Notes: a model not told the origin generated them from the letters alone. DNA of 64,000 nt from Tubulanus polymorphus (GCF_964204645.1 NC_134033.1:4550231-4614230), one strand, 5' to 3'. Counted from the stretch's first letter, positions 19,901-64,000 are shown. Program-made: numbers and translations.

Positions 19901-19973
19901 CGTAATCCGAAATGCGTTTCGAAGAAATATAGCAGACGGTCTAGCGATGCGGGAATTTCACAGATAAAGAATT

Positions 19974-45109: not shown

Positions 45110-45296
45110 AGTAATAGGGATAATAGGCTTTCAGGCCAAAGGTCGAACGGTCGAGCTCGTAAAAAATGAAAATAATAATAATTTACAGTTGAATTAGTCG
45201 CGCACACTCCTAATTCAACTGTAAATTATTATTATTTTCATTTTTACTCACCCGCCCGTTCAACCTTTGACCAGAAAGCCTATTATCCCTATTACT
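45110..45296. repeat. Left terminal fold-back palindrome (187 bp)
   Basis: agtaatagggataataggctttc...ttacagttgaattag [tcgcgcacactc] ctaattcaactgtaa...gaaagcctattatccctattact. Confidence 0.95.
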
Positions 45297-45465
45297 CTTA
45301 AAATATTCACATATATGAATAATATTTAAATCATTGAACTTCTAAAATCAATTTTAATAAAAAATATAGTATTAAAATGGAAGCAAATAAATACTACTGC
45401 CCAACATGTAATATCGATATAGACAAGTCTCAAAAAGCAAGACACAATAAAACTATAACACATTT
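45297..45465 (+). repeat. Left subterminal inverted repeat (partner of 62581-62752)
   Basis: Near-identical reverse complement; contains the upstream region and first ~29 codons of the pPolB gene. Confidence 0.95.
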
Positions 45466-45937
45466 AGAGAATAAATTGAAACTAGAATATAAGGATGATA
45501 TATTAGAAACTAAATTAGAAGAATTAAAGAATGAAAAAGAAACATATAAATGTGATACATGTAATCAATCATTCAGTGATAAAAGATATTATAAAGAACA
45601 TTTAAAATCTATAAGTCATATTAGAAATAAGAATAATGATATTTTAGGTGAAGATTATTTTGATAATGATAACGATAAGAAACAGAAGACAATTTAAAGA
45701 ATAAAAAATAAATTAAACAATAAAAGACCATACATGGAAGATGTAAGAAATTATATTAATTCATTAGATAATAAAAAAGATATAGAGATAACCGAAGCAT
45801 TTAAAAGTGATATTGGTCCAGCAGCTATCGAGTTTAAATTTCATAAAGGTAAAACATTAGAAGAAAATAAAAAACATTTAGAAAATATGAAAGAAATAAT
45901 AAAAATAATTACAGATGTTGAAACATCCCAAAAATAG
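45377..45937 (+). pseudogene. Disrupted N-terminal zinc-finger region of the pPolB gene
   Basis: Two C2H2-like fingers (CPTC..H..H, CDTC..H..H); ORFs 45377..45697 and 45734..45937 share a frame separated by one TAA; frame change near 45922. Confidence 0.7.
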
Positions 45938-48906
45938 AAAGAGATAATAATATAAAGATAAATGTATTTGATTTAATCAAATTACCAAATACAAAAGGAA
46001 ATAATATTAAACATTATACATTAGAACCTTTATACCTATCAAAAGATTATGATTCAAACGATGTTATAGATATACTATATTATGAGAATCATTATATGTG
46101 GATTAAACAAATAGATTTATTTTTCAAATCAGAAAATGATCACCATAAAATATATCTATGTAGAAAATGTTTACATAAATTTAGTAATGAAAGTACATTA
46201 TTAAATCATAAACAACTATGTGATAATCATGATTATTGTAAATTAGTTTTACCAAATGAAAAAGATAAAATATTAGAATTCAAAAAATATGATTACAAAA
46301 ATAAAGTACCATTTATAATATATGGAGATTTTGAATCATTAAATAAAGAATTAACTGATCAAGATAGAAAAGATATATATTATAAAAGAAAGAAATTAAA
46401 TTCTAATGAAAGTGATTATTCAGAAGAACCACCAAAAACAAATACTATTAAAAAGATTCATCAATCAGCTGCAGCTTTCGGGTTATATATAAAATCTAAT
46501 TATCCAGAACTAATCGAAAGTGAATATTATAATTATAGAAATGAAAATGTTATCAATCATTTTTGTGACTTATTAATTGAATATGAAATAAGATTTAGTA
46601 AATTATTGAATACAAATAAAGAAATAATTATGACAGAAGAAGATAAAGAAGAATTTGCGTTTGCAGATAAATGTTATTATTGTGAAAAGATATTTAATTA
46701 TAAAGATAAAAAAGTAAGAGACCATGATCATTTGAATGGAAAGTTTAGAGGCGCTGCACATGAGAATTGTAACTTACAAGCTAAGAAAATTAATTTTGTA
46801 CCAGTTATATTTCATAATCTATCAGGATATGATGCACATTTATTTATCAAACAGTTATGTTATAAAATAGAAGAAATCAATAATGAAATAGAAATATTAA
46901 ATTCAAATAGATCAAAAGATAAAATACCAACTTATAAATTTAAAATGTTAGCTAAAACATCTGAGAATTATATATCATTCCAATTTGGTTGTTTAAGATT
47001 TATAGATTCATATAGATTTTTAAATAGTTCATTAGATAACTTATCTAAATCATTAGTTGATGATGAATTAAAGATATTAAAAGAATATTACCCAAATTAT
47101 GATGATTTTAAATTAATGAGATATAAAGGAGCAATTCCATATTCTTTCTATAAAAATCATAATGATTTTAAAATAACTGAATTATTGAAAGAACAATTCT
47201 ATGATGAATTAAAAAATGAATATGTTAAAGATGAAGTTTATAATAGAACATTGAATATTTGGAATCATTTCAAAATAGAAAATCATGGACAATTAGTAGA
47301 TTTATATTTAAAATCAGATGTATTATTATTAACCGATATATTCGAAAGGTTTAGAGATGTAAACCTAAAATATTTTAACATTGATCCATGTCATTGTTAT
47401 TCATCACCAGGATTAACATGGGATTGTGGTTTAAAATTTACAGATATAAAAATGGATTTGTTAACAAATATAGATCAATTACTATTATTTGAAAAATCTA
47501 TAAGAGGAGGTGTTTCAGGTGTATTGGGTGATAGATATTTCAATGTAAATGATAATCCTGGATATAAATTATTATACATAGATGCAAATAATCTTTATGG
47601 TTGGGCAATGATGGAACCACAACCTTATGGGATGTTTGAAATAACTGAAGTTTTACAAATTGATAAATTTGATTGGAAGAAAAGAATCCTAGATATTGCA
47701 GATGATTCAGATATTGGTTACTTCTTTGTTGTAGATTCAGAATACCCTGAAAATATTAAATTCAAATCTAGAAATCTAGCATATTGTCCCGAACATAAAA
47801 CTGTTAAACATGAAGAATTATCAAATTATCAAAAAAGAATTAAACCCGATAATCATATTCATACTGAAAAGTTAATGGTAACTCAAGAAGATAAATATAA
47901 TTACGTTGTGCATTATAGAATGTTAAAATTCTATTTGAATCAAGGAATGATATTAAAAAAAGTACATAGATATATTTCATTTAATCAATCTAAGTGGTTA
48001 GAAAAATATATAGATTTTAATACTACACAGAGAACTAAATCTAAAACTGATTTTGAAAAAGATTACTTTAAACTAATGAATAATGCGTTCTATGGAAAAA
48101 CATGTGAAAACATAAGAAATAGAAGTGATATTGAGTTAGTTAGTAATGGTAAAAGGATAAGGCATTTACAATCGTATCCGAAATTCATAGGTAACAGAAT
48201 ATTTGATGAAAATTTAGCAGCAGTTAAAATGAGAAGAACAAGTATGAAATTTAATAAACCAATTTATGTTGGTGCATCGGTTTTAGAGTTATCAAAGCTA
48301 TTGATGTATAAATTTTATTATAACATATTACAACCCCATTTTGGAGAAAAAAATATAGAAATTCTATACTTTGATACAGATTCTTACATATTAAAGATAA
48401 AAAGTGATAATATAAAAGATGATTTAAAAATATTAAATCATCATTTCGATTTTAGTAACTATCCAAAAAATCATGAATTGTTTAGCAATGATAATAAAAA
48501 AGTTCCAGGGAAGTTTAAGGATGAATTAGGTGGTGAAGAAATGATAGAGTTCATTGGTATTAGATCTAAAATGTATTCATATAAAACTAAAGAACATGAA
48601 GCTAAAAAGTTAAAAGGAATAACCAAAAATGTAGTAGAAAAGAATATTCATTTCAAAGATTACATCAATTGTATATTTAATGAAGAAGTTAGAAAACATA
48701 AAATGAAATGTTTAAGATCTGAAGATCATGAAATGTATATTGAAGAGATAGAGAAGATAAGTCTAAACCCATTTGATGATAAAAGATATATTTTAGATGA
48801 TGGAATCCACACAGTCGCCTATGGTTGCAATTTAGATGAATATATAAAATTCAAAAGAGAAGAAACAAAAGAAAATGAAATTATGAAAAGGATTCTAACG
48901 TGTTAA
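45922..48906 (+). CDS. polB: Protein-primed-type family B DNA polymerase with inserted HNH/EndoVII domain
   Basis: ExoI YGDFES, ExoII FHNLSGYD, ExoIII YLKSD; Pol motifs YIDANNLYG, KLMNNAFYGK, YFDTDS; insert CYYC..VRDHDH..FRGAAHENCN. Frame is open from 45922 (IPKIERDNNIKINVF...HYMWIK), first ATG at 46096. Confidence 0.95.
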   Translation, partial: NIPKIERDNNIKINVFDLIKLPNTKGNNIKHYTLEPLYLSKDYDSNDVIDILYYENHYMWIKQIDLFFKSENDHHKIYLCRKCLHKFSNESTLLNHKQLCDNHDYCKLVLPNEKDKILEFKKYDYKNKVPFIIYGDFESLNKELTDQDRKDIYYKRKKLNSNESDYSEEPPKTNTIKKIHQSAAAFGLYIKSNYPELIESEYYNYRNENVINHFCDLLIEYEIRFSKLLNTNKEIIMTEEDKEEFAFADKCYYCEKIFNYKDKKVRDHDHLNGKFRGAAHENCNLQAKKINFVPVIFHNLSGYDAHLFIKQLCYKIEEINNEIEILNSNRSKDKIPTYKFKMLAKTSENYISFQFGCLRFIDSYRFLNSSLDNLSKSLVDDELKILKEYYPNYDDFKLMRYKGAIPYSFYKNHNDFKITELLKEQFYDELKNEYVKDEVYNRTLNIWNHFKIENHGQLVDLYLKSDVLLLTDIFERFRDVNLKYFNIDPCHCYSSPGLTWDCGLKFTDIKMDLLTNIDQLLLFEKSIRGGVSGVLGDRYFNVNDNPGYKLLYIDANNLYGWAMMEPQPYGMFEITEVLQIDKFDWKKRILDIADDSDIGYFFVVDSEYPENIKFKSRNLAYCPEHKTVKHEELSNYQKRIKPDNHIHTEKLMVTQEDKYNYVVHYRMLKFYLNQGMILKKVHRYISFNQSKWLEKYIDFNTTQRTKSKTDFEKDYFKLMNNAFYGKTCENIRNRSDIELVSNGKRIRHLQSYPKFIGNRIFDENLAAVKMRRTSMKFNKPIYVGASVLELSKLLMYKFYYNILQPHFGEKNIEILYFDTDSYILKIKSDNIKDDLKILNHHFDFSNYPKNHELFSNDNKKVPGKFKDELGGEEMIEFIGIRSKMYSYKTKEHEAKKLKGITKNVVEKNIHFKDYINCIFNEEVRKHKMKCLRSEDHEMYIEEIEKISLNPFDDKRYILDDGIHTVAYGCNLDEYIKFKREETKENEIMKRILTC

Positions 48907-48934
48907 TAAATTTCAATAAAAATTTGTATAATAA

Positions 48935-49276
48935 ATGGAGAGTAAACAAGTACACAATGAATTCTTAGATAGAATTAAAGATACCACAAATGTAAAATCT
49001 GTAGATTATAAATTCAAAAAGTTAACAGAATTAACAATTCACAAGAAATATTTAATTACAAATATTGTTACAGTTACTAACAAATATGGAGATAAATTAG
49101 TAATTCATTTAGAATATGAAGGATTAAAAGGAAATAAATATAAATTCAGAACTTATTTACCAGATAGATTTCATAGATTATCAAGTGAAGATCTAGAAGA
49201 ATTATGTTCTGGAGATTTCTATTTCGTATACAAAGGTAAGAATGAAAAAGGGCACCATGAAATAGATTTCGAATAA
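48935..49276 (+). CDS. Small beta-rich protein, possible OB-fold ssDNA-binding protein
   Basis: FKKLTEL..KY.I....NKYG....YLPDRF...FVYKG pattern; immediately downstream of pPolB. Function inferred. Confidence 0.55.
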   Translation: MESKQVHNEFLDRIKDTTNVKSVDYKFKKLTELTIHKKYLITNIVTVTNKYGDKLVIHLEYEGLKGNKYKFRTYLPDRFHRLSSEDLEELCSGDFYFVYKGKNEKGHHEIDFE

Positions 49277-49293
49277 GAAAATATGTAAAATAA

Positions 49294-50052
49294 ATGGCGG
49301 AATTAAAAGAATACAGAATATTTATAGATTCTAGAAGGCTTACAAATTATAAATCACATAATTTACTAGTACAATTAGACAGAGAATTTAAGAATTGTGT
49401 AGATTTAAAATTAGTAAATATAAGTTTATGTAATTCTTTTTACAATGTATCGGATAAGTCTATTGAACATAGAGTCTTTTTAATTCATGATAGAAATAAA
49501 AGTAAATGGTTTCATCTTTATCTTAAACCAGGATTATATAATTTAGAAACATTAGCTCGAGAAATTAATAGAAGAGCTCGGTTGAAAATGGGTGCACCTG
49601 CTGGATTTGGATTAAGACTGATTAAAAGTGATAGTTCTGATAAAATAAGAATAAAATTAGGTAATGAAGATCAACATCAATTTCTAGTTAAAAAACCCTT
49701 AGCTAAAATTTTAGGAATAACCCCAGATGTAAGGATACGCAATGCTGATGCTACACCAAATATAATGCCTTTTACACATTTTTATATTTATTGCAATTTA
49801 ATCGATCCTACAAAAACATTCGAAGCAACTAAAGATATAACTTGTAATTCTGGTTTACTAAACATTTTACCATTGAAGAATGTTAAAGAATTTGGAACGC
49901 AAATAAATTATAATTTAACAGAATGTGATTTCAAACCATGCATTCCTCGTTTTAATAATTTTAGATTAGAAATTAGAAATCATAATGGATACTTAATTGA
50001 TTTAAATAACTTTCCTGTAATTTATGAATTAGTTATAAGATGTAAAGAGTAA
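49294..50052 (+). CDS. Probable minor capsid (penton, single jelly-roll) protein
   Basis: IFIDS, NSFYNV, PGLYN, YIYCNLI and FRLEIRNHNG.LIDLN pattern typical of Polinton/PLV pentons. Confidence 0.75.
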   Translation: MAELKEYRIFIDSRRLTNYKSHNLLVQLDREFKNCVDLKLVNISLCNSFYNVSDKSIEHRVFLIHDRNKSKWFHLYLKPGLYNLETLAREINRRARLKMGAPAGFGLRLIKSDSSDKIRIKLGNEDQHQFLVKKPLAKILGITPDVRIRNADATPNIMPFTHFYIYCNLIDPTKTFEATKDITCNSGLLNILPLKNVKEFGTQINYNLTECDFKPCIPRFNNFRLEIRNHNGYLIDLNNFPVIYELVIRCKE

Positions 50053-50068
50053 TTTTTTCACTATATAA

Positions 50069-50410
50069 ATGAATATAACTGTTGGACCGAGTATATGTTT
50101 TGGGTTTGATTTTAAACATGGTAAAGAAATGAGAATTAAACTAAATGATGTAATTACTGATATAAAAAGTAAATCATTTAACAATGCATCAATGATTGAT
50201 AAAGAAAATTATAATATAGAAAAAGTAATTGATTTAATTAAATCACCTTTAGAATATTATGAATTAAATGAAGATGGAATTATTGATGATATTAAAAACA
50301 TATTATCCAAAATATATGATAATCATAAAACTAGTAATGAAATAAATGTTGAAATAATCATAAATAAGTTAACTAAATATTTTGATGATAGTAATTTTTT
50401 TGATAAATAA
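50069..50410 (+). CDS. Hypothetical viral protein
   Basis: Intact, tightly packed ORF with TAAATG start. Confidence 0.7.
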   Translation: MNITVGPSICFGFDFKHGKEMRIKLNDVITDIKSKSFNNASMIDKENYNIEKVIDLIKSPLEYYELNEDGIIDDIKNILSKIYDNHKTSNEINVEIIINKLTKYFDDSNFFDK

Positions 50411-50632
50411 ATGAGTGATAATAAGTGGATAATAACTGGATTATATAATGGCGCATTACTATCAGTTGGAACTGTTGGTTATTCAATGGTATTAAAAAAA
50501 GTATTCAAAATGGGAAGTGTTAATGTTGATAGATTTGATATAAATGATATTTTAAAGTTAACATTAGCAGTTACTTTATCTAATTTAACTATTGATTATT
50601 TGGAAAAACAAAAATATATTCCTCCCATATAA
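50411..50632 (+). CDS. Small hydrophobic protein
   Basis: Two hydrophobic stretches; TAAATG start. Confidence 0.7.
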   Translation: MSDNKWIITGLYNGALLSVGTVGYSMVLKKVFKMGSVNVDRFDINDILKLTLAVTLSNLTIDYLEKQKYIPPI

Positions 50633-50656
50633 ATGCATAATTTTTTTGTTAAATAA

Positions 50657-51079
50657 ATGGCTTCTGCAATTATAACTATTATAGGATCGGCAATTGTTAA
50701 CGCTTTAGCATTTACTGGTGGTGGATATTTATTTAAACATATTGATAAAAATAGTTCATTAGGAGAACAAAGAAGACATAACTTAGCGTTAGAGAAATAC
50801 AATAAAGCTGCAGAAGAATATAGAGAAAAAAGACAAAACTATATGGATTACATCAATAAAGAATTATATGATCAGAAGATTTCACATAGAGATTTTCAAT
50901 CAGTTGATGATGCAATGAGTTTATATAACGCAGTAACAAATAAAGAAAAATTACATCTATACAAACCTAAATTATCAGATTATTATACCCCGAGTAAAGA
51001 ACAACAGAAATATGAAATAATTTGGATTTTAGGTGGAACAGTTATTGTTATATTTGTTGCTTATAAGTTTACTAATTAG
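50657..51079 (+). CDS. Membrane protein (hydrophobic N- and C-termini, helical middle)
   Basis: N-terminal IIGSAIVNALAFTGG; C-terminal IIWILGGTVIVIFVAY; TAAATG start. Confidence 0.75.
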   Translation: MASAIITIIGSAIVNALAFTGGGYLFKHIDKNSSLGEQRRHNLALEKYNKAAEEYREKRQNYMDYINKELYDQKISHRDFQSVDDAMSLYNAVTNKEKLHLYKPKLSDYYTPSKEQQKYEIIWILGGTVIVIFVAYKFTN

Positions 51080-51098
51080 TAATTTTTATTCTAAATAA

Positions 51099-51533
51099 AT
51101 GGAAGATAAAGTTGATAGTATTGATATTATTCCTCATGATATAAATAAAACTAAATTAAAAACATATTTAGAAAAACAAATATTAGAATTTGAAAGTGAC
51201 TTAAAGATAAAAAAGAAAAAATATTTAAAAAGTAAAATTATATATTATTTGATTATAAGTGGTTCGGTTACAATTAGTTCTGTAATAACATTTCTAGCAA
51301 TATTTAGTCCATTAACACCTTTAGCTATATCAATTGGTGTATTAGGATTAAGTTCAAGTGTTTTAACTGGTATAAGTTCAAAATTAAATATAAAAAGTAA
51401 TAAAGAAAAAATCAAAACTAATATAAAAGAAATTAATAAATTAAAGAACACACTAGATTATATAATAAGTTTAAATGGTCATATAACAGTTGAAGAACAA
51501 GATAAATTATTAAAAGAATTAATAAATTATTAA
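51099..51533 (+). CDS. Two-TM membrane protein
   Basis: Central paired hydrophobic helices flanked by Lys-rich helices; TAAATG start. Confidence 0.75.
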   Translation: MEDKVDSIDIIPHDINKTKLKTYLEKQILEFESDLKIKKKKYLKSKIIYYLIISGSVTISSVITFLAIFSPLTPLAISIGVLGLSSSVLTGISSKLNIKSNKEKIKTNIKEINKLKNTLDYIISLNGHITVEEQDKLLKELINY

Positions 51534-51549
51534 TTTTTTAATTATATAA

Positions 51550-52851
51550 ATGGGGTTTCCAAAAGCTTTCCAATATAATAAATCAATTAAATATAATGTT
51601 CCGGCAATAGATTTTAAGAAAAATATTACATATAAAAATATAGTTTTAAATTCATTAACTAATTTAGAAATTTATGTTAATGAATCACAGTTTTTTATTT
51701 CTAAAATGGAAAATATATTTAATACATATGAAGTTACTTTTACTCGAGATGAATATCATATATATAAAGTAAAATCTAATATGAAATATTGGCAGAATCA
51801 ATTAAATTTTGCTGTTTATTGTGCAACAACAGGATGTGGAATAAGTTGGAATGATCATTTAAATAACTTAGATAAAAATTTGAAGTATTCTGATTTAAAA
51901 TTAATTCACACAATATTTAGATTTCACACATATTTTCAAATCAGAATAATATTAAATGAATTAGAATGTCCTTTACCCGGGTCTAAATATTTTAAAGAAT
52001 TGGATAATAATATTAATATATCCAAGTTTTATAAAATATGTAATGAATTTAATATAAATATTAATTCCGATTTTAGAGCGCATGGTAAATTGCAAGGTGT
52101 TGGTGAAGAGTTTGAAATAAAAAGAATTGATTATATGCATAGAATTGGAGCTTATCATAATTATAAAATTGATAATAATAATGGTTGGGTTAATTTCATT
52201 TTAGAAAATGGTGAAGGTTTTACAAAATCAGGTATACAAAGAATAAATCAATCTATTAGAATTTATTTGATATGTATTTTAGGCGCTCAAGTTGAAACAA
52301 GATCCCAAATAATTGGAAATGATAACACTTCATTCGATGCGCAGAAACAGTTTAAAGTTTTATTTGAAGATTCCATACATGATGATAAAAATAGATCGAT
52401 TCCAGAAAACATTATAAGATATCAAAATTATTTAGATAAATCTCATGTAAGACTTAATTATTGTATAGGCCCTAATCTATTAATTATTTCTAATGATTTA
52501 GTATTGAAGATGGGAAACATAATTGGTTATAATAATATAATTAAAACTGCAACAATAAATAATTCATTTGGATTGAATGATATAAATAAAAAGATTATTA
52601 CTGCTCCAAAATTAATGGAAGGTGAAAAAAATAAAAAACACATTCAATCAACAGAAACTAAAACTAAGAATATTAAATTAAATAATGATTCTAAAATAAA
52701 AGATTACAATACATCAGAAAATATTAGAACTGATAAAATTCAACATGATATAATTAAACTAAATGATGATAATAAATCACATGAAAATACTAAATTAGCT
52801 ATAACTTGTATAGGAATTGTAATCGGAGGAATATTATATTTTAAATTTTAA
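51550..52851 (+). CDS. Hypothetical protein with C-terminal TM anchor
   Basis: 433-aa intact ORF; WQNQLNFAVYCATTGCG block; C-terminal LAITCIGIVIGGILYF. Confidence 0.8.
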   Translation: MGFPKAFQYNKSIKYNVPAIDFKKNITYKNIVLNSLTNLEIYVNESQFFISKMENIFNTYEVTFTRDEYHIYKVKSNMKYWQNQLNFAVYCATTGCGISWNDHLNNLDKNLKYSDLKLIHTIFRFHTYFQIRIILNELECPLPGSKYFKELDNNINISKFYKICNEFNININSDFRAHGKLQGVGEEFEIKRIDYMHRIGAYHNYKIDNNNGWVNFILENGEGFTKSGIQRINQSIRIYLICILGAQVETRSQIIGNDNTSFDAQKQFKVLFEDSIHDDKNRSIPENIIRYQNYLDKSHVRLNYCIGPNLLIISNDLVLKMGNIIGYNNIIKTATINNSFGLNDINKKIITAPKLMEGEKNKKHIQSTETKTKNIKLNNDSKIKDYNTSENIRTDKIQHDIIKLNDDNKSHENTKLAITCIGIVIGGILYFKF

Positions 52852-52867
52852 TTTTTTTATTATGTAA

Positions 52868-54329
52868 ATGGATGTAGAAGGTGGAGAAGATTATGAAATG
52901 GGAGAAATGGGAAATGATAATGAAGGATATATTGATGATGATTATAATGATGCAGAAACTAATATTGATAATGATGATGAATCAGCATATAATTCTAATT
53001 TAGCAGATAGTGGTTCTAAAGGTCAATCAACAGATGAATTTGATAGAAGAACTAGATCGAGAATAAATCCTGAAAATGAAAATCCAGATTTAGTAAAACA
53101 AAATTTAGAATATAATGAATATATTTATAATTTCAAACCTATATTTGAAAAATCTGGATATGATATATATGCTAGAGGCGCCAGACTTTTAGTACAAGAA
53201 TTAAAATCTTTAGATGGTGAATATTATTATCGTTTGAAAGATGATTATTATATTGATATCTCTTATAAAAAACAAAACAAAATATTAGCAGAATCAACTT
53301 TGCTTAAGTCTGACTCATTACTATCTAGAATTAAAAGAATAAGAAATAGTAATGATATAGAAGATGTAACACAAGAAGAAATTATTAAAAATGAAAGAGT
53401 ATTTAAACAAAGAATTAATGAATTATTTGAAACAATCAATAATAATTTAGAACCAGAAACAACTTCTGAACAGAATATAACTTCCAAAACTAGTAAACTT
53501 AAATCAAACACTGAAGTTCAAACTGAAAAACTTTTACCGAATGGATTACTTGATGCAACAGATCAAGAAATAGAAGCTTTAAGAATGTTTTCTAAAAAAA
53601 CAATTAGAGAAATAATAAGTATACGAAATGATGCCGATAAAATTGCTCGCGAAAAACATATTAGATATAATAAAATTAAACCTTTAGAAAATAAATTATT
53701 TGACACCAGAAAAGAATTAGAACAATTAAAATTAGATAGAGAATTTAAAGTTATTGAAGAAATTGAATTTAAAAAAAAGAAATGCATATTTAGAAAAAGA
53801 AATTGATGATTTAGAATATAACATAGAATTTCAGAAAGAAAAAATGAAATTATTATTAAAATCATACGATTATTGTATCAATAGATTAAAAGTTGTTGTT
53901 AAAGAGTTAATACTAAAACCAAATTCTGACATATCATTGAAAGATAGAATAAAATTATTATTTAAGTTTGAAGGAATAACAGTTCTTTCAATTCTAACAG
54001 CTGTAACTATGTTATTTACAACAATTGGTTTAGCAATATCAAATGCTTTGAAATCTACTCCTACTCCAAATAAACCAGATAAACCTCCAGGTAATAATTC
54101 TATACAAGATAAAGTTAAAGATGGTTTAAAGAAATTAGCAAAATATTTATGGGAACTATCAAAGAAATCTGCTGCAGCACTACCAGGAGTTATTGCTTCA
54201 ATTGTTGGTTTTATATTGAAATCTGCAGGTAATATTCTTAACTTTGCTGCTGAACATATTATTTTATTTTTAATCACAGTTGTAAGTGCTATTATTTTTG
54301 GGTTAGTAAACATGATAAAAAATAAATAA
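52868..54329 (+). CDS. Coiled-coil protein with hydrophobic C-terminal helices, split by one extra A
   Basis: ORFs 52868..53806 and 53754..54329 fuse (EFKKRNAYLEK) if one A is removed from the A8 run at 53771-53778; the second ORF lacks its own ATG/TAAATG. Confidence 0.7.
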
Positions 54330-54349
54330 TTAATTTTTTTGTTAAATAA

Positions 54350-55597
54350 ATGAGTGGGAGTTATATAAATCCTTCTAAGATTTCTAGAATATCTAATGCT
54401 ATTAAAGCAGAAAGATCACATCATATAATTACTCATAACCCTTCAAATATTAATCCCGATGAAACTTTATACGTTAGAATTCCGAGATTAACACAAAATA
54501 CTTTTTATGTTCCAAACAGTATTTATTTATCAGCTGATATAAAAGTATCTCGTAATAATAATAATTATGTCGTTGATAATGTTGGAAGATATTTGATTAA
54601 AAAGTTAACAATAAAGATTGGTCCGGAAACAGTTTTCTCATTAGATGATTATAATTTATTTATGCATTATAAAGATTTATGGTTAACAAAAGAAAATAGA
54701 AATAATATGATATTTCAAGGCATCCAATCAGAAAACCAAAATAAATTAAGATCAGAAGCTAATAGCGCAATATTAACTAATGATGTAGATAAATTGATAA
54801 AAAGTATATATGGAAGCAAATATAAAATTCCATTAGACTTTGAATTGATAAATAATAATGCACCTTTATATAAATACGCAATTCAAGAAGATATTATATT
54901 TGAGATAACATTTGCTCCTGTAAATGAAATTGTAATATCTAGCGTTAATAAAGATATGAGTTATAAATTATCGAATATATGTTTAGAATATAACACAGTA
55001 ACTAATGAAAATATTGCTAGCACAATTCAAACTCAATACAATCAAGGATTTTCATTATTATATGATTATATTGATAAATTTAAAACTGTAACTATTAATG
55101 CAAATGATGAAATAATAAATGAGAATATTAACTTTCCTAGAAGATCTATTAAAGGTATATTAATATTTTTTACTATTGGAACATATACTAATGGTGCAAT
55201 AAATGTTGACAATTATTATAATCCTGAAATAACAAAAGTAGAAATAACTATTGAAGGAATAGCGAATAAAATATTTTGTCAAGGAATGAGAATGATAGAT
55301 CAATGGGTAGAAATTAAAAAACATTTTATGAATGAAAAAGTAAAATCATTTGAAAATTGTAACATTAATCAAATTGACTATTATACCGGTAATAAATTTG
55401 CATTATGGTTAGATTTTAGAACAACTGAAGATAATTCATTACATGGTTCTGGAAAAAAACTACAAAACACTAAAGATGGAATACAATTATTCATGACAAA
55501 GAAAAAGGGAATCAAAAATTTTAAAATGCACATTTATATTATATCTGACGCGCAATTAAATATTATAAATTCACAATTAGATAGTGTTATGTATTAA
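54350..55597 (+). CDS. Probable major capsid protein (double jelly-roll)
   Basis: 415 aa, beta-rich; IPLDF, YKLSNICLEY, INENINFPRRSIKGILIFF, FALWLDFR, YIISDA; size and position fit a Polinton MCP. Confidence 0.8.
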   Translation: MSGSYINPSKISRISNAIKAERSHHIITHNPSNINPDETLYVRIPRLTQNTFYVPNSIYLSADIKVSRNNNNYVVDNVGRYLIKKLTIKIGPETVFSLDDYNLFMHYKDLWLTKENRNNMIFQGIQSENQNKLRSEANSAILTNDVDKLIKSIYGSKYKIPLDFELINNNAPLYKYAIQEDIIFEITFAPVNEIVISSVNKDMSYKLSNICLEYNTVTNENIASTIQTQYNQGFSLLYDYIDKFKTVTINANDEIINENINFPRRSIKGILIFFTIGTYTNGAINVDNYYNPEITKVEITIEGIANKIFCQGMRMIDQWVEIKKHFMNEKVKSFENCNINQIDYYTGNKFALWLDFRTTEDNSLHGSGKKLQNTKDGIQLFMTKKKGIKNFKMHIYIISDAQLNIINSQLDSVMY

Positions 55598-55629
55598 AAT
55601 TTTAACTTTAATAAAAATGTATATAATAA

Positions 55630-56571
55630 ATGGAAGGAGGTAAAGTATATAAACATATTCCATACATCGATACACATGAAAATAATGATGGTTTATATTA
55701 TGTAATACCTTGTAATATAGCTTTGATATTTGATCCTATTTTTAAAAATTATAAAACTAAACTGATAGAAATCAATAATAATAAAAGTGGTGTTGTTAAT
55801 GATAGTGTAATTGATAATAATGTAATACCTACTACACCTGTAATACCTACTACTACATCTGTAATACCTACTACTACATCTGTAATACCTACTACTACAT
55901 CTAATAACGTAATACCTACTACATCTGTAATACCTACTACATCTAATAACGTAATACCTTCTACATCTAATAATAAAATAATATTAGATGTTAGTGAAAA
56001 TAGAAATTATTGTGGTTATTGTAATGGTGAATTTTCAAACGCTCCATCAAATTGGAATAAACATATGAATACAAATTCACATATTACTAATGTTATAGAA
56101 CGTGTTGGTTTAAGAGAATTTATAGAACACCCATTTAGATATGTTACAAAGTTTGTTTCAAATAAAAAAGTAAATGGTGAAAAAATATATGAAGATTTAT
56201 TATTAGCAACACCTAATAAAGATGAATTAGATTTAACTGATGCTAATGAAATATTAGGATCAAACACTGTAAATGAAATATTAGGATCAAACACTAATAA
56301 AGATGATAATGAAAATGATGCCATACACCCACATGATGATATAGTTACAGTTAAACATATTTATATTAAAGATTCTATGAAACATAAAGAAGAAACTATT
56401 GATGATATGATAAAAAGGATCAATAAGCGTAACAATGAAACAACTATTGGTGGTGTGGTAAAAAAGGCGAAAAAGGTGAAAAAAAATTATAAAGATGTTG
56501 AAGAAGATACGGTAGAGTATTTGAATATGTTGTTAGCGTCTGATAGTGAAAGTGATTCAGAAATTGAATAA
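55630..56571 (+). CDS. Hypothetical protein with VIPTTTS repeats and a C2H2-like finger
   Basis: gtaatacctactac repeats at about 55820-55970; CGYC...WNKHMNTNSH. Confidence 0.7.
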   Translation: MEGGKVYKHIPYIDTHENNDGLYYVIPCNIALIFDPIFKNYKTKLIEINNNKSGVVNDSVIDNNVIPTTPVIPTTTSVIPTTTSVIPTTTSNNVIPTTSVIPTTSNNVIPSTSNNKIILDVSENRNYCGYCNGEFSNAPSNWNKHMNTNSHITNVIERVGLREFIEHPFRYVTKFVSNKKVNGEKIYEDLLLATPNKDELDLTDANEILGSNTVNEILGSNTNKDDNENDAIHPHDDIVTVKHIYIKDSMKHKEETIDDMIKRINKRNNETTIGGVVKKAKKVKKNYKDVEEDTVEYLNMLLASDSESDSEIE

Positions 56572-56640
56572 TAAAGGTTGAAAATTGTATAAAATAATAG
56601 TAAATAAAAAAAGGGTTTTAATTATTTAAGGTATCTAATA

Positions 56641-56710
56641 GGGTATCAGGTATTAGGGTATCAGGTATTAGGGTATCAGGTATTAGGGTATATAATAGGG
56701 TATCTAATAC
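56641..56710 (+). repeat. 15-bp tandem repeat (GGGTATCAGGTATTA)x3 plus two variants
   Basis: Directly visible, at the junction of the convergent gene blocks. Confidence 0.9.
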
Positions 56711-56726
56711 ATAGGTATACAAATAG

Positions 56727-57338
56727 TTATTTTATAAATTTATATTCATAAGGAAATTGTAATCTCAGTAATAATTTTGAACCTTTATTATTTTTTAATT
56801 TATTCATATATTCATCATGTAATTCAGGAGGTATAATTTGATTTTCTTCCAATGATTGTTGCATAGATTTTCTATCTTTGTTGTAGAATAAAACTAGAAA
56901 TCTTATATTCTCTCTAAAATCTTTAACAATTGAATTATATTTCTGATTTAAAACCCATGTTGTTATCCCAAAATGTCTACCAGAGAAAGCTAAATAACAT
57001 AACTCACTTTCTCTAATTTTAGAATCATGTAAATTTGCGCAATCATCGATAATAAATAATGTATTAGATCCTTTATAAATATCTAATACAATTTTTATAC
57101 AATTATCTAAATTTTCTTTTACTGTTTTAGGGTCTAATATAATAAACTTTTTTATCTTAACTATATCTCTATTATATGTTTTATTCGTTTCATATGTAGG
57201 ACAGAATAATATTATATTATCAAAATGATTTTTATAAATAGTTTCTAACAAATCTAATATGAAATGTGTTTTACCACAATTTGTAACTCCAATAACTAAC
57301 ATATTATGTGGTTCAAATATAAATAAATCTTTATTCAT
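56727..57338 (-). CDS. A32/FtsK-like genome packaging ATPase
   Basis: Walker A GVTNCGKT, Walker B LFIIDD, GRH arginine motif, downstream Q..IVKDFREN. Confidence 0.92.
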   Translation of the reverse strand: MNKDLFIFEPHNMLVIGVTNCGKTHFILDLLETIYKNHFDNIILFCPTYETNKTYNRDIVKIKKFIILDPKTVKENLDNCIKIVLDIYKGSNTLFIIDDCANLHDSKIRESELCYLAFSGRHFGITTWVLNQKYNSIVKDFRENIRFLVLFYNKDRKSMQQSLEENQIIPPELHDEYMNKLKNNKGSKLLLRLQFPYEYKFIK

Positions 57339-58419
57339 TTATTCTTTTAATTTTACTAGATAAAATCCATTCATTAAATTTATCATCATATCCTTTATAT
57401 TTCACCAAAGAATACTTTTTTCCTTTAAGAGTTTTTGTTTTCAATACCTTTTCTATTTTGTATTCTATTTCATCTGGATTTGGTACTAATGATAATTCTT
57501 GTTCATAAAAATAACCTAATATTTCTTCATCTTTTAAATCAAACAATTTATAAACAAATGGTTTAGTTAATATTATCTTTTTAATTTTGAATATTTCTTC
57601 TGTAAAATTAGGGGTATAACCTTTATAAAATGTTTTTCGATATTTAGAAATTCTAACGTGTTGTCCTATTTTAAATTTAGGTTCTCCAAAATCATGTGTA
57701 ACAAATGCTCCATATAAATTATTCCAAACTATTTCTGAATTTTCTTCTTTTCTAGCTTGTATAGGTTTCATATTTATAGAACTATGTTTAGAATTATTAT
57801 AACCTTTAACTAAATCATCTAACACATCGATATATTTATATGTTTCATTAGCAGTAAAATATTTCCACATTCTAGTTTTCAATGTTTTATTAAATCTTTC
57901 TATAACAGATGCTTTTTTATCTGAATGTGTTGAAAAATATTCTACTTCGTTATCAGATAATAGTTTTTTAAAATGTTTGTTATAAAATTCTTTACCTTCA
58001 TCAAATTGTATTTTATCTGGAATAGCTTCTTTAAATATGGATTTAAAAGCATTTGTAACTTCTATTCCAGTTTTATTTTTAATCGGGATACTCCATGCGT
58101 ATCTACTGAATATGTCTATAACATTTAGTATCCAAAAATATCCTTTGTTATATTCTTCTAAGTTTTTCATGTCAATTAAATCTGCTTGCCATTGTTGATC
58201 GATATATGAAACCATTACTTTTCTTGTTAAATATTTTTTATCCATCTTTTTATGAATTTGATATGTGGGTTGATTTTGTAACCATGATTTTAATTCACTA
58301 TATTTTATATTGCTATTATCGGATTTAATTTTATTCCATAATTCTGAAACGTTAGAATATGAAACTTCACTTTCTGGGTTATAATATAAATCTCTTAAAT
58401 ATTGTTCTTTTTTCATCAT
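57331..58419 (-). CDS. int: Retroviral-like (rve) integrase with C-terminal chromodomain
   Basis: WQADLID, VIDIFSRY, IQFDEGKEF and VIERFNKTLK (DDE); IEKVLK...LVKYKGY...NEWI chromodomain. Confidence 0.96.
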   Translation of the reverse strand: MMKKEQYLRDLYYNPESEVSYSNVSELWNKIKSDNSNIKYSELKSWLQNQPTYQIHKKMDKKYLTRKVMVSYIDQQWQADLIDMKNLEEYNKGYFWILNVIDIFSRYAWSIPIKNKTGIEVTNAFKSIFKEAIPDKIQFDEGKEFYNKHFKKLLSDNEVEYFSTHSDKKASVIERFNKTLKTRMWKYFTANETYKYIDVLDDLVKGYNNSKHSSINMKPIQARKEENSEIVWNNLYGAFVTHDFGEPKFKIGQHVRISKYRKTFYKGYTPNFTEEIFKIKKIILTKPFVYKLFDLKDEEILGYFYEQELSLVPNPDEIEYKIEKVLKTKTLKGKKYSLVKYKGYDDKFNEWILSSKIKRINE

Positions 58420-58422
58420 ATT

Positions 58423-58797
58423 TTAATCCATTAATAATATTTTAGATTTATTTTCATTTGATTTATTTTCTGGTATAATAGGTTTATTGTCTGTACATGG
58501 ATAACTAAGTTTCCGATCATCTTTATCGTCAGATTTGAATTTTGATTTATATATTACACCGGATAATATAATAATTGTGATTAACCCAATTGTAATATAT
58601 AAGTAATTATTTCTTCCACTATTAGAAGAATTAGATGGATTATTATTTGAATCAATATCAGATAATTTCTGTGATTCATTTATATCAGTTAATTTCTTTT
58701 TCTTAGCTTTTTTTAATTCTGATGATCTTTTACCTAATTCTCTTGCCCATTTAATTTGTTTCTCGGATCTAGCCTTTTTCTTAACTCCATCACTCAT
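58423..58797 (-). CDS. Basic single-pass membrane protein
   Basis: Lys-rich N-terminus and one TM segment; TAAATG start. Confidence 0.7.
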   Translation of the reverse strand: MSDGVKKKARSEKQIKWARELGKRSSELKKAKKKKLTDINESQKLSDIDSNNNPSNSSNSGRNNYLYITIGLITIIILSGVIYKSKFKSDDKDDRKLSYPCTDNKPIIPENKSNENKSKILLMD

Positions 58798-59395
58798 TTA
58801 TTTTAGTTAATTTTTGTTCTGATTCATCTTCTGTTTCGTGGTTTGGTTGTAGTACATCTGTTTCGTTCTTACCTGATTTATATTCCATAGGTTTGATGTT
58901 CGAAAATGTTATAACTCCAGTAGAAATCAATGTCATAACCGATCCTAATTGAAATGAAGCATATCCAACCCATTTTTGTAATTCAGTCATAACTAAATAG
59001 TCATTTTTCAAATCATTATATAATTTATTTTCATCATCAATTGGTATTAGCCGGTTACATAATTTTGAATAACATTTGATAATACCATCACTTATAGAGT
59101 CGTTTATTCTAGCTAATCTTGACTCTTCATAAATCTTAAAATATTTGATTACTTTTTCTTTATTCATATTATCTAATTCTTGAAAAGTTATTGTTTTACC
59201 AATAAACTCTTTAGTTTTTCCACTCGCAATCAATAGTTCTAGATGATGTTTACAATATAAATAGTATTCATAATCAATATTACTATCAATTTTATTATCA
59301 CATTTAGTTGCCACATTATCATTATCATCTGTTAAACCTAAATCTTCCAAAGTTTTTTCAACCTTAATATTATTCTTATTCGATTTCTTAGACAT
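58790..59395 (-). CDS. Hypothetical viral protein
   Basis: Intact 201-aa ORF with TAAATG start; overlaps the next gene by 8 bp. Confidence 0.7.
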   Translation of the reverse strand: MSKKSNKNNIKVEKTLEDLGLTDDNDNVATKCDNKIDSNIDYEYYLYCKHHLELLIASGKTKEFIGKTITFQELDNMNKEKVIKYFKIYEESRLARINDSISDGIIKCYSKLCNRLIPIDDENKLYNDLKNDYLVMTELQKWVGYASFQLGSVMTLISTGVITFSNIKPMEYKSGKNETDVLQPNHETEDESEQKLTKINE

Positions 59396-59619
59396 TTATA
59401 TTAGAGAAATTTAATAAGAATAGTATTATAAGTATTCTTCAAATGATACTAGCTAGTTAAAGTTAAAGAATTCTAGTATTAGTTATTTTTTTTTAGTATT
59501 TTTTATTTGTGATATAAAGTATTCTTTTTTGAAAAGAAAATATTAAAAATTAAAATAGAAATAATGTCTAGTTGAAGGTATGTAATTTTTATTATATTTT
59601 ATTTGAGATATATTATTCT

Positions 59620-60288
59620 TTAACCACTCATTAAAGACTCAACGTATTGTTCATTATTTGGATTATTATTCCATAATTCAATAAATTTCTTTGCTTTTGT
59701 TAACCGTTCTAAATATAATTGTAAATCTAGTTTATTAGATTTGATTTGATTTTCTTTCTTTTCTAAAGGCCTTAGATTCTTCCAATTCCAAATAAGTTTT
59801 TTATTATATTCATCATTCATGTTAAATTTAGATATTGGTAACACGTGATCAATGTGGTAATAATCCCCATAATTATCTATATTCATTTTATCATCGAATT
59901 GAAATATTATCCATGATTTGAGAAATTCATCTGAACAACCCAACAAATTAGATAGTGTTTCTGAATGTGTTTCTTTGTTGAATAATTGTGTTAATCTAGT
60001 CCTTAAGCATTGTTTCAATCTAAAATTAAGATCTGTTTGATATCTTTCTCTCATATATTTTGTCATATAATAATTATAATGTTCTATATTATCTTCTCGA
60101 TATTGTTTGGTGTATAGTTTAGCACAAGTTTTACAACAATTTTGAAAACCATCTTTGCTAATCTTACGCTTACTAAATTCTGTTATAGCTAATTTATTTA
60201 ATTCACATTTAGAACACTTCTTGTAATATATGTTTATAACGCCAGTGTTATTTGTAATATTGATAATTTGTGGTTGTTCTGGTTCCAT
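59620..60288 (-). CDS. Zn-ribbon plus HNH endonuclease of the type common in large DNA viruses
   Basis: CSKC...CKTC; LGCS; NYG.YYHIDHVLP...NLRPL...N..KSNK. Confidence 0.85.
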   Translation of the reverse strand: MEPEQPQIINITNNTGVINIYYKKCSKCELNKLAITEFSKRKISKDGFQNCCKTCAKLYTKQYREDNIEHYNYYMTKYMRERYQTDLNFRLKQCLRTRLTQLFNKETHSETLSNLLGCSDEFLKSWIIFQFDDKMNIDNYGDYYHIDHVLPISKFNMNDEYNKKLIWNWKNLRPLEKKENQIKSNKLDLQLYLERLTKAKKFIELWNNNPNNEQYVESLMSG

Positions 60289-60429
60289 TTATTATACGTA
60301 TTTTTTTACTAAATTGGTTAATAATTTTAGAATCCTCTTCCATTTCTCCGACTAACGTAATCCTTTTTCATTCCTCGCTGTTTTTGATAAGTCAGTTTCG
60401 ATTCCTTGATATCTAAATAATACCACTGG

Positions 60430-60900
60430 GCAAAACCGCTCTTATAGGAGCGCTTTTGCTTAATGCGCATGCGTTAATCATAATTATATATTCATTCTGT
60501 AAATTCTGTAAAATAGAAACGACTGACATAAAATATCAAAACGTGTTCGCACTAAGCAAAACCGCTCTTATAGGAGCGTTTTTGATCAATGCGCATGCGC
60601 TAATCATAATTATATATTCATTCTGTGAAATAGAAACAACTGAACATAGAAAATTCAAACACATATGCACTAAGCAAAACCGCTCTTATAGGAGCGTTTT
60701 TGATCAATGCGCATGCGCTAATCATAATTATATTTACATAATGAATATATAATTATGTAAATAGAAACGACCGACATAAAATATCAAAACGTGTTCGCAT
60801 TAGGCAAAACCGCTCTTATAGGAGCGCTTTTGCTTAATGCGCATGCGTTAATCATAATTATATATTCATTCTGAATAGAAACGACGGAACATAAAAATTC
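60430..60900. repeat. Four ~120-130-bp tandem repeats with palindromic cores
   Basis: Units start at 60430, 60556, 60674 and 60804; core gcaaaaccgctcttataggagcg(c/t)ttttg followed by tgcgcatgcg. Confidence 0.95.
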
Positions 60901-60987
60901 ATCAATCAGATTTACACAATACATTATACAAGTTGTTCGGTCGTTGTATTGACAAAATTTATATTTTCAACTAATACATTATTTTAT

Positions 60988-61764
60988 TTATAATTCCAAC
61001 CAGAACTTTTCAATTTCTGGATCATTGTCAAACATTTTTTCAATATCGTTTAAATATTTTACTATATCAGAAAATGACAAACTTAAAAATTGGAATCTTT
61101 TATATGTAATTAATCTCCCTACACTTCTTAATTTTCTTTCATACTCAGCACTAATACCTATATATTTTTTAACCCAAGAAGTCCAAGAAATCCCCGCAGT
61201 TTGTTTATTAAACATTAAAAATCCCCTATTTAAACAATCCCCGAAAATGATATAATCCCATAAATGCTTTGCCTTTTTGAATAACAAGGTCCTATAATTT
61301 TTTTTCAATAAAACAGTTATTTCATTAAATGATGTTATACCTTCTATTTCTTTAAAACTTACATCTTTTTCAATTGATAATTTTGATTTTAAAAACTTAT
61401 TTAACTCATTTCCGCTCATTTTCTTTTTAGTTTTTGTTCCTTTTCCTTTTAGTCTTAACAATATTTCTACATTGGTTGTTGGTCTTTTCGGTAATGATGT
61501 TACACTTGATTGCTGGTTTTCTATAATTTTTTCTAAAATTAATGTCATTTCTTGATGGTAATATAAATGTTTTTTAACTTCTTCTAACGTTTCATCTTCT
61601 ATATCGAAAGATTCTTTTACTTCAACACCCATTTCGATTGGTTCATATTCCATTTCGGTTGGTTCATATTCCATTTCGGTTGGTTCATCTTCCATTTCGG
61701 TTGGTTCATCTTCTATTTCGGTTGTGCTCTGAGAATCAAGAGTACTTCTTGATACACACGACAT
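60988..61764 (-). CDS. Hypothetical protein with 7-aa acidic repeats
   Basis: E(D/Y)EP(T/I)EM repeats encoded by 21-bp units; first ATG at 61764 in TAAAATG context. Confidence 0.7.
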   Translation of the reverse strand: MSCVSRSTLDSQSTTEIEDEPTEMEDEPTEMEYEPTEMEYEPIEMGVEVKESFDIEDETLEEVKKHLYYHQEMTLILEKIIENQQSSVTSLPKRPTTNVEILLRLKGKGTKTKKKMSGNELNKFLKSKLSIEKDVSFKEIEGITSFNEITVLLKKNYRTLLFKKAKHLWDYIIFGDCLNRGFLMFNKQTAGISWTSWVKKYIGISAEYERKLRSVGRLITYKRFQFLSLSFSDIVKYLNDIEKMFDNDPEIEKFWLEL

Positions 61765-62580
61765 TTTATTCAACTAAAAGATATCAGCGGTAGAACAGGA
61801 ACCGCGATATTATATGATATAAATATTTTCAAGTCTATCGTTTCTAATTATTATAACTTATTATAGTTCAAGTTATTATCTATCTAACGTAAAATAGAAT
61901 TAACTGTATGAAGTTGTAGTTGTCAAAAGCACTTAAAGGTTTCATATTTAATAGCCTTAATAACTACAACAAACAGTACTTACATTTAGATTTATAATTG
62001 TAAACTATAAACTCCTAATTTCGTTTCGAAAGATAGAATATCCTGAGCACAATATTACAGCGTATATCCATTTCCGGGGCGATTTCTAGAATGACACGTC
62101 GTTAATTATGCTACGTCATCTAGTTCCGGTTCTAGAGTGTTCTCTCTCTGCACCTGATTATGACGTGTAATAATGTCTCGTCGTTATAGTAACAACTGTA
62201 ACAGCTGTGAATTTATAGATTTATTCTATGGCTCTGTACATTGAATGTATATAGGCTCAAATAGAATCATGTTCTAGTATAAACATCTAGAACAAGCGTG
62301 TTGAGACTTGTAAATTATGAGATTTGTGATTCGCTACGTTCGCTGTATACACAACGTGTTGAAGTTGAAAAAAAAAATAATAAAAGCATTTAGATTAATG
62401 AAATTAATTAACTCTTTACAATTGAAATATAAGCTGGTAACATATGTTTACTAGAGCTAATACAACCAACTATATAGCTGAGTATTATCGGGTGTTTATA
62501 ACGATTCAACATATTTTTCGCCATGTGTTGAGTTCCTTAATTCGATAAATGTCTTTGCTTTAAACAACTGGACTAAAAAC

Positions 62581-62752
62581 AAATGTGTTATAGTTTTATT
62601 GTGTCTTGCTTTTTGAGACTTGTCTATATCGATATTACATGTTGGGCAGTAGTATTTATTTGCTTCCATTTTAATACTATTTTTTTTATTAAAATTGATT
62701 TTAGAAGTTCAATGATTTAAATATTATTCATATATATGTGAATATTTTTAAG
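62581..62752 (-). repeat. Right subterminal inverted repeat
   Basis: Reverse complement of 45297-45465. Confidence 0.95.
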
Positions 62753-63158
62753 AGTAATAGGGATAATGGGCTTTCGGGTTAAAGGTTTAATGATTGAGTT
62801 CATTAATAACATATATTAAAAGTAATTAAAAAACTATAATATATTTTCATAACCGCGTGTATTTCGGTTGAATAATAGAATAATTATTATCATTTGAATA
62901 TATTTGATTATTTGAATTTGTGTATTGTAATTAAATCAATTGGTCGCGGAGCGGAGCGGTGGCGAAGCGGAGCGACCAATTGATTTAATACAATATGCAT
63001 TTAAAATTATTGATATCTTAGAATAAATATTTAGTTTTGATATAAAATGCATGCGGTTATGAAAATATATTATAGTTTTTTAATTACTTTTAATATTTTG
63101 TTTTTTAATGAGCTCGACCTTTCGACCTTTGATCTGAAAGCCCATTATCCCTATTACT
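62753..63158. repeat. Right terminal fold-back palindrome (406 bp)
   Basis: agtaatagggataatgggctttc...attaaatcaattggtcgc [loop 62948-62971] gcgaccaattgatttaat...gaaagcccattatccctattact. Confidence 0.95.
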
Positions 63159-64000
63159 ATTATCGAAAGGTTTCAATAACCATTTAAGCGATTGAATATA
63201 AGTAATTTCATTTCTGGTCACCAGTGGTTTGATAACTTTAAATGCGTCGTGGTCCATTGTCAGTATAGCGCCATATTGATGACGATATTGAAATTTGTTG
63301 ATCAGATTTTTCATATCACTTTCTATATTGAAGTTGATTCTTACTATTTCGGCGCGGATGCTGTGACACATTTCTCTAGCACTCCGAATATTCAAACCTC
63401 GATTGTTTTTCCAGTCTGTTAGTATTTGATAACATTGTCCGGTAATAGTTACCAAACCTCTTGGACAGGTTGAATTAATTAAAGTAACATCGGGAATCAT
63501 TTGATCTATTGTTTTATTCAAGCTTGTATTTGTTGAATTGTTCGCATCGTTTATCTTTAAATCGTTTTTGAAGTCGATTCTCTCAGATTCACAAATGAAT
63601 GTCGTGTGCGTCTCTTCGATTTGACACGGGAATCGAACCCAGTTCGCTGATCCTCGTGGGTTATTCAGTATCATCGCCGTACACGGCATATTGACGTCAT
63701 TTATCGGTTGTTTTCTTAACGGAGATATCAATCCTCGAATAACTTCTGGTATCGTTTCATTAATAACAGGTTTATACCACTCTGTGTAGCTCAATGGTTT
63801 ACCGTCAGTCCACGTGTAATAACCATCATTCTGTTTCGTGAAGAAAATTAAATATATCACTTCTTTAAAAATCTTTCGATTATAATTCATATTGGAATAC
63901 ATTAGTCTTACCTTCCATTTTAATCCAATCATCATTATGAGCGCTTTTAATGAGTACGCCATTCGGAGAAGTTCTGTAGCGAATAATCTTTTGATGGAAA
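63159..64000 (-). pseudogene. Receptor copy C, upstream part (C-type lectin region); continues beyond the window
   Basis: Aligns with about 33810-34660 of copy B. Confidence 0.93.

Follow-up and report, generated by a model that had tools for sequence, protein, structure and literature searches.

An integrated Polinton of 18,049 bp, which lies at positions 45110-63158 of a 64,000-nucleotide stretch of Tubulanus polymorphus DNA (GCF_964204645.1 NC_134033.1:4550231-4614230; called the window below), terminates in two long fold-back hairpins that differ from each other and are polarized toward the strand whose 3' end lies at the respective terminus. The element is multi-copy in this animal genome, and its boundaries are exact. 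We tentatively favor the view, held with somewhat less than even confidence, that the long and different fold-backs serve as end signals when folded as single strands, in a replication cycle for which protein priming is still predicted. What is new is the combination of two long, different, and strand-polarized fold-backs on a multi-copy animal Polinton of a family that keeps the terminal protein. The priming of Polinton ends and the removal of the terminal protein for integration have been regarded as an open question (PMC11161782), the surveyed literature contains no characterization of a free form of any animal Polinton, and the present ends represent short defined substrates for a direct comparison of protein and hairpin priming.

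Table 1. Features of the Polinton and its insertion site (positions in the window)
Feature	Position	Strand	Basis or remark
Left target-site duplication ATTATC	45104..45109	+	6 bp
Left fold-back A-x-A', 187 bp	45110..45296	-	Best fold on the minus strand, the 3' end of which lies here
Left hairpin tip, tandem G·A pair on the minus strand	45198..45209	-	Fold and pairing inspection
Inner inverted repeat B	45297..45465	+	99% to the right copy; holds the first ~30 codons of the polymerase gene
Protein-primed DNA polymerase (pPolB) gene, broken in its 5' part	45377..48906	+	PF03175; 4,577 homologs
Minor capsid protein (penton), probable	49294..50052	+	No Pfam or PHROG family match
Major capsid protein, double jelly-roll	54350..55597	+	921 homologs; model pLDDT 84.4
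A32/FtsK-type packaging ATPase	56727..57338	-	PF04665, E 1.2e-11
Retroviral-type (rve) integrase with chromodomain	57331..58419	-	PF00665, E 2.4e-9; PF00385
Stand-alone endonuclease VII-like ORF	59620..60288	-	phrog_1035, E 6.1e-15
Four internal repeats of ~120 bp, each containing an imperfect palindrome	60424..60901	.	Non-coding stretch
Inner inverted repeat B'	62581..62752	-	Sequence comparison
Right fold-back A-y-A', 406 bp	62753..63158	+	Best fold on the plus strand, the 3' end of which lies here
Right hairpin tip with four GCGNAGC motifs	62946..62973	+	Motif scan, both strands of the element
Right target-site duplication ATTATC	63159..63164	+	6 bp

The element forms an AT-rich island, with a GC content of 20-30% across its length versus 32-43% elsewhere in the window. 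Its tips read AGT...ACT (AG...CT termini), the 6-bp ATTATC duplication lies outside both of them, and it splits an intronless host gene with C-type lectin, LDLa, LRR, and 7TM domains, a paralog of which at 33404-34255 carries no insertion and thus provides an empty site within the window. The single duplication around the whole element and the empty paralog agree with the single integrase-type insertion that had been proposed for this DNA.

Regarding the architecture of the ends, the layout [A-x-A'][B]...[B'][A-y-A'] described in the original prediction was correct, with self-pairing that extends to the very last base of the 187-bp and the 406-bp end. The hairpin interiors have no resemblance to each other or to the rest of the element, and the outer arms have 49 bp in common with 4 mismatches, the weaker likeness extending to 69 bp at 87%. 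Inverted repetition is found at three levels, namely, the outer arms (69 bp, 87%), the inner arms (45 bp, 91%), and B/B' (158 bp at 99%, ~170 bp overall); terminal inverted repeats are accordingly present, but are interrupted by the unrelated hairpin interiors. The two hairpins contain perfect stems of 36 and 52 bp, and at position 16 both left arms have A:T and both right arms G:C, which indicates that pairing is maintained within each end. The terminal 15-mer occurs exactly four times in the window at no more than 2 mismatches, with 0.31 occurrences expected. Since B' includes the polymerase start codon, a 57-codon ORF (62496-62669, minus strand) reads from the right end, and its first 30 residues are those of the polymerase zinc-finger part.

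The folding of both strands of each end with DNA and RNA parameters showed a preference for the same strands, minus at the left and plus at the right. With DNA parameters, the left end gave -78.4 kcal/mol on the minus strand versus -67.6 kcal/mol on the plus strand (z = -19.8 on minus, 0/200 shuffles), and the right end -109.6 kcal/mol on plus versus -98.2 kcal/mol on minus (z = -20.2 on plus, 0/100 shuffles). The terminal base is predicted to pair flush with the inner arm such that B would be the template copied next, and the fold-back would place the 3'-OH at a primer-template junction, as in a parvoviral rolling-hairpin replicon.

The non-standard pairs in the arms were also polarized. All 4 transitions in the left arms give G·T on the minus strand, and 8 of the 9 in the well-aligned first 110 bp of the right arms give G·T on the plus strand (14/16 over the whole right hairpin, the middle of which varies with the aligner); at both ends combined, G·T falls on the 3'-ended strand in 12 of 13 well-aligned transitions (two-sided p = 0.003). 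The wobble polarity claimed for both ends therefore holds for this copy, and part of it is private to this copy. In public raw DNA reads (run X6), at least 4 of the 9 scored right-end G·T pairs (offsets 24-114) and the sole A·C pair are Watson-Crick in 77-98% of reads, a range to be read with the caveat that reads of other arms may map onto the shared arms. Among the five scored right-end pair positions that differ from most reads, four yield G·T on the 3'-ended strand, and mutation on single strands may thus account for part of the polarity without selection. C-to-T and A-to-G changes are the pattern expected of deamination on single-stranded DNA.

Other mismatches show the same preference. 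Of the 6 left-end mismatches that are not transitions, 5 give G·A on the minus strand; four of these form two tandem pairs, one at the hairpin tip and one at 45157-45158/45248-45249, and C is found at none of the 20 mismatched bases. Within the 18-kb element, GCGNAGC occurs four times on the plus strand, in each case within the same 28 bp at the right tip, and not at all on the minus strand; these four motifs overlap and, hence, are not independent. The loop at the right tip is of the GNNA type in 88% of X6 reads. Mini-hairpins of the GCGNAGC type contain a sheared G-A pair, are more stable as DNA (Tm 76.5 C) than as comparable RNA (39 C), and are found at single-stranded DNA origins (PMC13037366). 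Collectively, G·T, tandem G·A, and GCGNAGC all favor the 3'-ended strand, which points to folded single-stranded DNA; selection and mutation bias alike imply that the 3'-ended strand spends time folded and single. A single-strand-specific structure on one strand of the ends represents sequence evidence for a folded single-stranded intermediate.

Run X6, approximately 12% of which was read and in which depth is not equivalent to copy number, allowed the ends to be examined in other copies. The reads are mostly 90-95% alike to the window, which indicates a diverged population of copies. A total of 2,427 reads (1,893 and 534) exit the element at 63158/63159 into flanks of low agreement (0.34-0.36), and many insertion sites consequently share this terminus. 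The depth is ~1,000-1,700 in the right hairpin interior, and the complete right hairpin, including the point where it meets B', is covered by raw reads at a depth of ~1,000 or more. Reads switch from the shared arms into the left-type interior (457 and 566 reads) and from B into the polymerase gene (912 reads), and left-type arms join B in hundreds of reads. Both end types are thus common in reads, by which an assembly artefact is excluded. No host-flank cluster was found at the right inner boundary among the best six X6 clusters, the smallest of which held 457 reads (2,427 at the outer boundary). B and B' are 99% alike, yet both differ from most X6 reads at several sites; this near identity suggests that the ends also undergo mutual correction, as would follow from the classical panhandle model. 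Flip-type strand-switch joints at the right end were represented by 11 and 9 reads among the joints listed (15 of 51). The check for flip and flop forms that had been called for therefore gave a ratio far from 1:1, with a few reads of the flip type, and the orientation of the right end looks fixed, the evidence speaking against 1:1 flip/flop, not against a minority form. Just inside the right inner repeat, X6 depth falls approximately tenfold (~95-135 at 62332-62493 versus 1,000-1,500 at 62818-63087), and most copies therefore differ or are deleted there.

The gene content is that of a Polinton, in which the polymerase gene is broken in this copy. Its zinc-finger part (45377-45697) is terminated by a stop codon at 45695-45697, and its exonuclease/polymerase part, which carries an endonuclease VII domain, is open from 45925. 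The polymerase of relatives is one protein of 1,320-1,365 aa, of which the window matches residues 1-186 and, in another frame, 354-1362; ~167 codons of relatives are absent at 45922/45925, where the frame changes, and these correspond to the rest of the terminal-protein domain, including the linking Ser, and to the vOTU catalytic Cys. Because of the stop and the frame change, this loss looks like decay, and since its polymerase gene is broken, the copy is likely a non-autonomous member. The closest polymerase relatives are 78-80% identical, and the terminal protein absent from this copy is seen only in relatives. Among 120 homologs listed, 85 were of at least 1,150 aa and were counted as full-length, the 35 shorter ones being left out; the predicted linking Ser is kept in 83/85 of these and the predicted vOTU Cys likewise in 83/85. 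The predicted structure of one relative (P0151) shows a sheet-and-two-helix topology with the Ser in a Gly-flanked loop before the last strand, in the strand-helix order described for PRD1-like terminal proteins (PMC11161782). The family is therefore predicted to keep protein priming, and it is possible that the copies in this host belong to a lineage that has dropped its terminal protein.

The structural model of the major capsid protein matches the capsids of PBCV-1, SGIV, and mavirus (E 1e-17), which suggests a capsid of the dsDNA-virus type, and the product of the ORF at 49294-50052 is presumably the penton, a label based on resemblance and position. The ORFs at 52868-53806 and 53844-54329 lie next to each other, possibly as parts of a single broken gene. 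The stand-alone endonuclease VII-like ORF is a candidate junction or hairpin nuclease, or alternatively a homing endonuclease; its look-alikes are common unnamed viral protein clusters. Among the ORFs scanned, there was no Pfam or PHROG match to an adenain-type protease; most of these ORFs match nothing, and a divergent protease is possible. No match to a Rep/HUH nickase or an SF3 helicase was found among the ORFs of the element, in which no unexplained long ORF remains. The four internal repeats are reminiscent of baculovirus hr origins/enhancers. Short tandem repeats are found at 55797-55940, 56636-56718, and 61612-61724 (units of 21, 15, and 21 bp), two of them inside ORFs and one between converging gene blocks, and a promoter scan gave chance level.

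Going beyond the sequence anatomy, we infer a cycle in which the terminal protein would start synthesis at a free duplex end and the polymerase would displace one strand. The 3' end of the displaced strand would then snap back on its own inner arm, stabilized by G·T, sheared G·A, and GNA mini-hairpins, and, with this folded end as the starting point, the terminal-protein/polymerase complex would initiate the second strand and read across the hairpin, such that the outer arm would stay outside and no nick would be required. B and B' could still pair end to end, and the integrase would use the outer AGT...ACT tips. Findings on phi29 bear on this cycle: protein priming was markedly poorer at origins bearing a 5' single-stranded extension, and a recessed 3' end was considered by the authors to be a good ordinary primer (PMC4150772). 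By analogy, the folded end would have exactly this recessed-3' and 5'-extension shape, which counts against protein priming there.

A cycle closer to that of parvoviruses is the main rival, and appears rather unlikely to us: the folded 3'-OH would prime the second strand into B and give hairpin-closed duplexes, which the integrase or the endonuclease VII-like protein would nick open again, whether or not protein-primed patching also took place. The flush terminal base with B next as the template, a layout equal to A-A' plus D of the AAV terminus (PMC1131931), and the quality of a recessed 3' end as a primer for a pPolB (PMC4150772) fit such a cycle, an identical model has been proposed for protist elements (10.64898/2026.07.28.741278), and this copy lacks the priming Ser and has a stand-alone endonuclease VII-like ORF, which was found at none of 35 distant loci. 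The loss of Ser, however, accompanies a stop and a frame change and looks like decay, endonuclease VII domains are common in such polymerases generally, and the terminal protein and vOTU are conserved in the family in the proportions given above; moreover, neither a Rep/HUH nor an SF3 helicase match was obtained among the ORFs, 1:1 flip/flop was not seen at the right end, and the palindromes in the preprint go preferentially with non-pPolB elements (10.64898/2026.07.28.741278). Some bocavirus ends exist in a single form yet are thought to be hairpin-primed (PMC8242256), which makes a fixed orientation compatible with self-priming. The inference of hairpin ends in the original prediction is thus borne out in the dissimilar fold-backs, the folding of the 3'-ended DNA strand, the predicted placement of the 3'-OH, and the match to A-A'/D of AAV, and not in self-priming; the replacement of protein priming by hairpin priming is unsupported so far, given the terminal-protein fold and Ser kept in the family. 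Hairpin priming, if true, would link Polinton and parvovirus-style replication in one element. A hybrid of the adenovirus and parvovirus schemes is improbable in our estimation: the terminal protein would open each round, displaced strands would prime their own synthesis at the 3' hairpin, and the 5' hairpin with its bound protein would be removed by host enzymes or the endonuclease VII-like protein to leave a protein-free two-hairpin molecule of fixed polarity, which the integrase would insert after nicking the ACT/B junctions. This scheme would yield exactly [A-x-A']B...B'[A-y-A'] without flip/flop, and would account for the removal of the terminal protein from a pPolB element ahead of integration, a step called unclear in PMC11161782.

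It is also unlikely that the fold-backs are functionless by-products, in which fold-back copying errors duplicated the ends, the integrase accepts the intact outer 49 bp, and C-to-T and A-to-G changes on single-stranded DNA produce the G·T polarity. The private right-end differences described above (four of five giving G·T on the 3'-ended strand) are in line with this account, as is the absence of a long terminal fold-back from the 47 contig ends of 33 distant relatives; the copies of one host may all stem from a few ancestors, and accidental annealing has been named as an alternative for the protist elements (10.64898/2026.07.28.741278). On the other hand, both hairpins retain long perfect stems although their interiors are unrelated, the two arms of each end have changed in concert at position 16, and reads of either end type are frequent; deamination cannot make tandem G·A pairs or four GCGNAGC motifs, and a GNNA-type right-tip loop is shared by most reads. 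We regard a function at the RNA level, raised originally as an alternative, as highly unlikely. Outward transcripts would fold to G·U-rich double-stranded RNA and serve as decoys or small-RNA sources; folding with RNA parameters prefers the same strands (-125.8 versus -103.8 and -194.7 versus -152.7 kcal/mol), and G·U and tandem G·A stabilize RNA too. The arms, however, stop exactly at the integrase tip, no Rfam match was obtained at the gathering score, and GCGNAGC-type hairpins are far less stable as RNA than as DNA (PMC13037366), which makes this reading the weaker one. An origin of the palindromes as separate MITE insertions or through an assembly artefact is largely refuted and hardly credible. 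Each A-x-A' unit does resemble a small element with inverted ends, and outer-arm depth in X6 is ~2x that of B (3,413 versus 1,715), a ratio that is not fully explained and for which other elements sharing only the tips may be responsible. Nevertheless, the element as a whole lies within a single target duplication and each hairpin lacks one, its flanking 6 bases being different on the two sides; the paralog provides an empty site, the arms are not identical to each other, in contrast to chimeric fold-back reads, and raw reads cover both kinds of end, the same terminus recurring at many insertion sites.

Among known systems, the closest overall are the Polintons/Mavericks (polintoviruses, 'adintoviruses'; PMC8097293, PMC8502044), with which the present element shares pPolB, the rve integrase, the A32 ATPase, a double-jelly-roll capsid, the 6-bp duplication, AGT...ACT tips, a length of 18 kb, and an animal host; it differs from them in that one plain inverted-repeat pair is replaced by a separate long fold-back at each end, the two having different interiors, and in the lack of an adenain protease match. 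Vertebrate Mavericks have terminal inverted repeats of 46-1,447 bp and AGT-type tips (PMC8097293), and the terms 'hairpin' and 'palindrom' are absent from PMC8097293 and PMC10748475. No description of long, dissimilar fold-back ends of an animal Polinton was found in the literature searched, and such ends are not described in the passages searched of PMC8502044, PMC10748475, PMC11296320, 10.1101/2022.07.28.501842, and 10.64898/2026.10.13.758929. The idea of hairpin priming itself is not new, having been proposed in 2026 for the terminal palindromes of protist virophages and PLVs (10.64898/2026.07.28.741278): endogenous virophages of Halocafeteria seosinensis and PLV subtype 4 have palindromes at their tips beside the target duplication, for which hairpin priming was put forward as a proposal. 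The example given for these protist elements is 52 nt long and lies within the terminal inverted repeats, and the palindromes occur preferentially in non-pPolB elements (10.64898/2026.07.28.741278), whereas those of the present animal Polinton are 187 and 406 bp, dissimilar, strand-polarized, and found in a terminal-protein pPolB family.

Parvovirus termini (AAV ITR and the heterotelomeric bocavirus/MVM; PMC1131931, PMC8242256) resemble the present ends in the fold-back plus an inner unpaired repeat (D corresponding to B), in two different hairpins, and in mismatched bubbles; in contrast, the element has no Rep nickase or parvoviral capsid, has its own polymerase, an integrase, and a putative dsDNA-virus capsid, and shows no 1:1 flip/flop. 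The telomeres of Streptomyces linear replicons (Tpg/Tap) are also similar, with a folded 3'-ended strand, a terminus complementary to an inner palindrome, sheared G:A hairpins, and a protein primer: synthesis is protein-primed on a folded 3' overhang, the first 13 nt of which are complementary to the inner palindrome, with the G:A sheared hairpins between them (PMC4513846). The proteins are unrelated, and these replicons are bacterial, with an internal origin and several short palindromes versus one long stem, such that the precedent they offer for the cycle favored here is an analogy of mechanism only (PMC4513846). Bidnaviridae have a Polinton-derived pPolB with a terminal protein and single-stranded genomes; however, their terminal repeats are stated not to form hairpins, and they have no integrase and a parvovirus-type capsid (PMC4061559).

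Searches for relatives of the ends returned no match to the terminal motif in viral contigs, and three metagenome matches to the motif were treated as chance, since none of them had a second arm or resembled the window more widely. Neither single proteins nor the capsid alignment retrieved close relatives from viral contigs, two short contigs with a capsid gene in prokaryote bins carried no ends, and GenBank phages gave no match. The 33 distant relatives (27-39% polymerase identity), in which none of the 47 contig ends has a long terminal fold-back, include few true termini, and short-read assemblies break at palindromes, which makes this negative a weak one. Among these contigs, L030 and L033 have matching ends, and L020 and L028 begin with AGT-like motifs. 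L033 (1-6543), a viral contig of 6.5 kb, has a distant pPolB and inverted ends of 272 bp that start with GTGTGTGT; it is bidnavirus-like.

Regarding the surroundings of the insertion, tandem paralogs of the large intronless receptor-like gene are present as several ORF pieces at 31216-37233, 42926-45109, 63159-64000, and 19941-22074, and its flanks have a read depth of ~400-500, which suggests an expanded family. The ORFs at 22365-25211 and 39502-40191 resemble LINE reverse-transcriptase fragments, as judged by eye.
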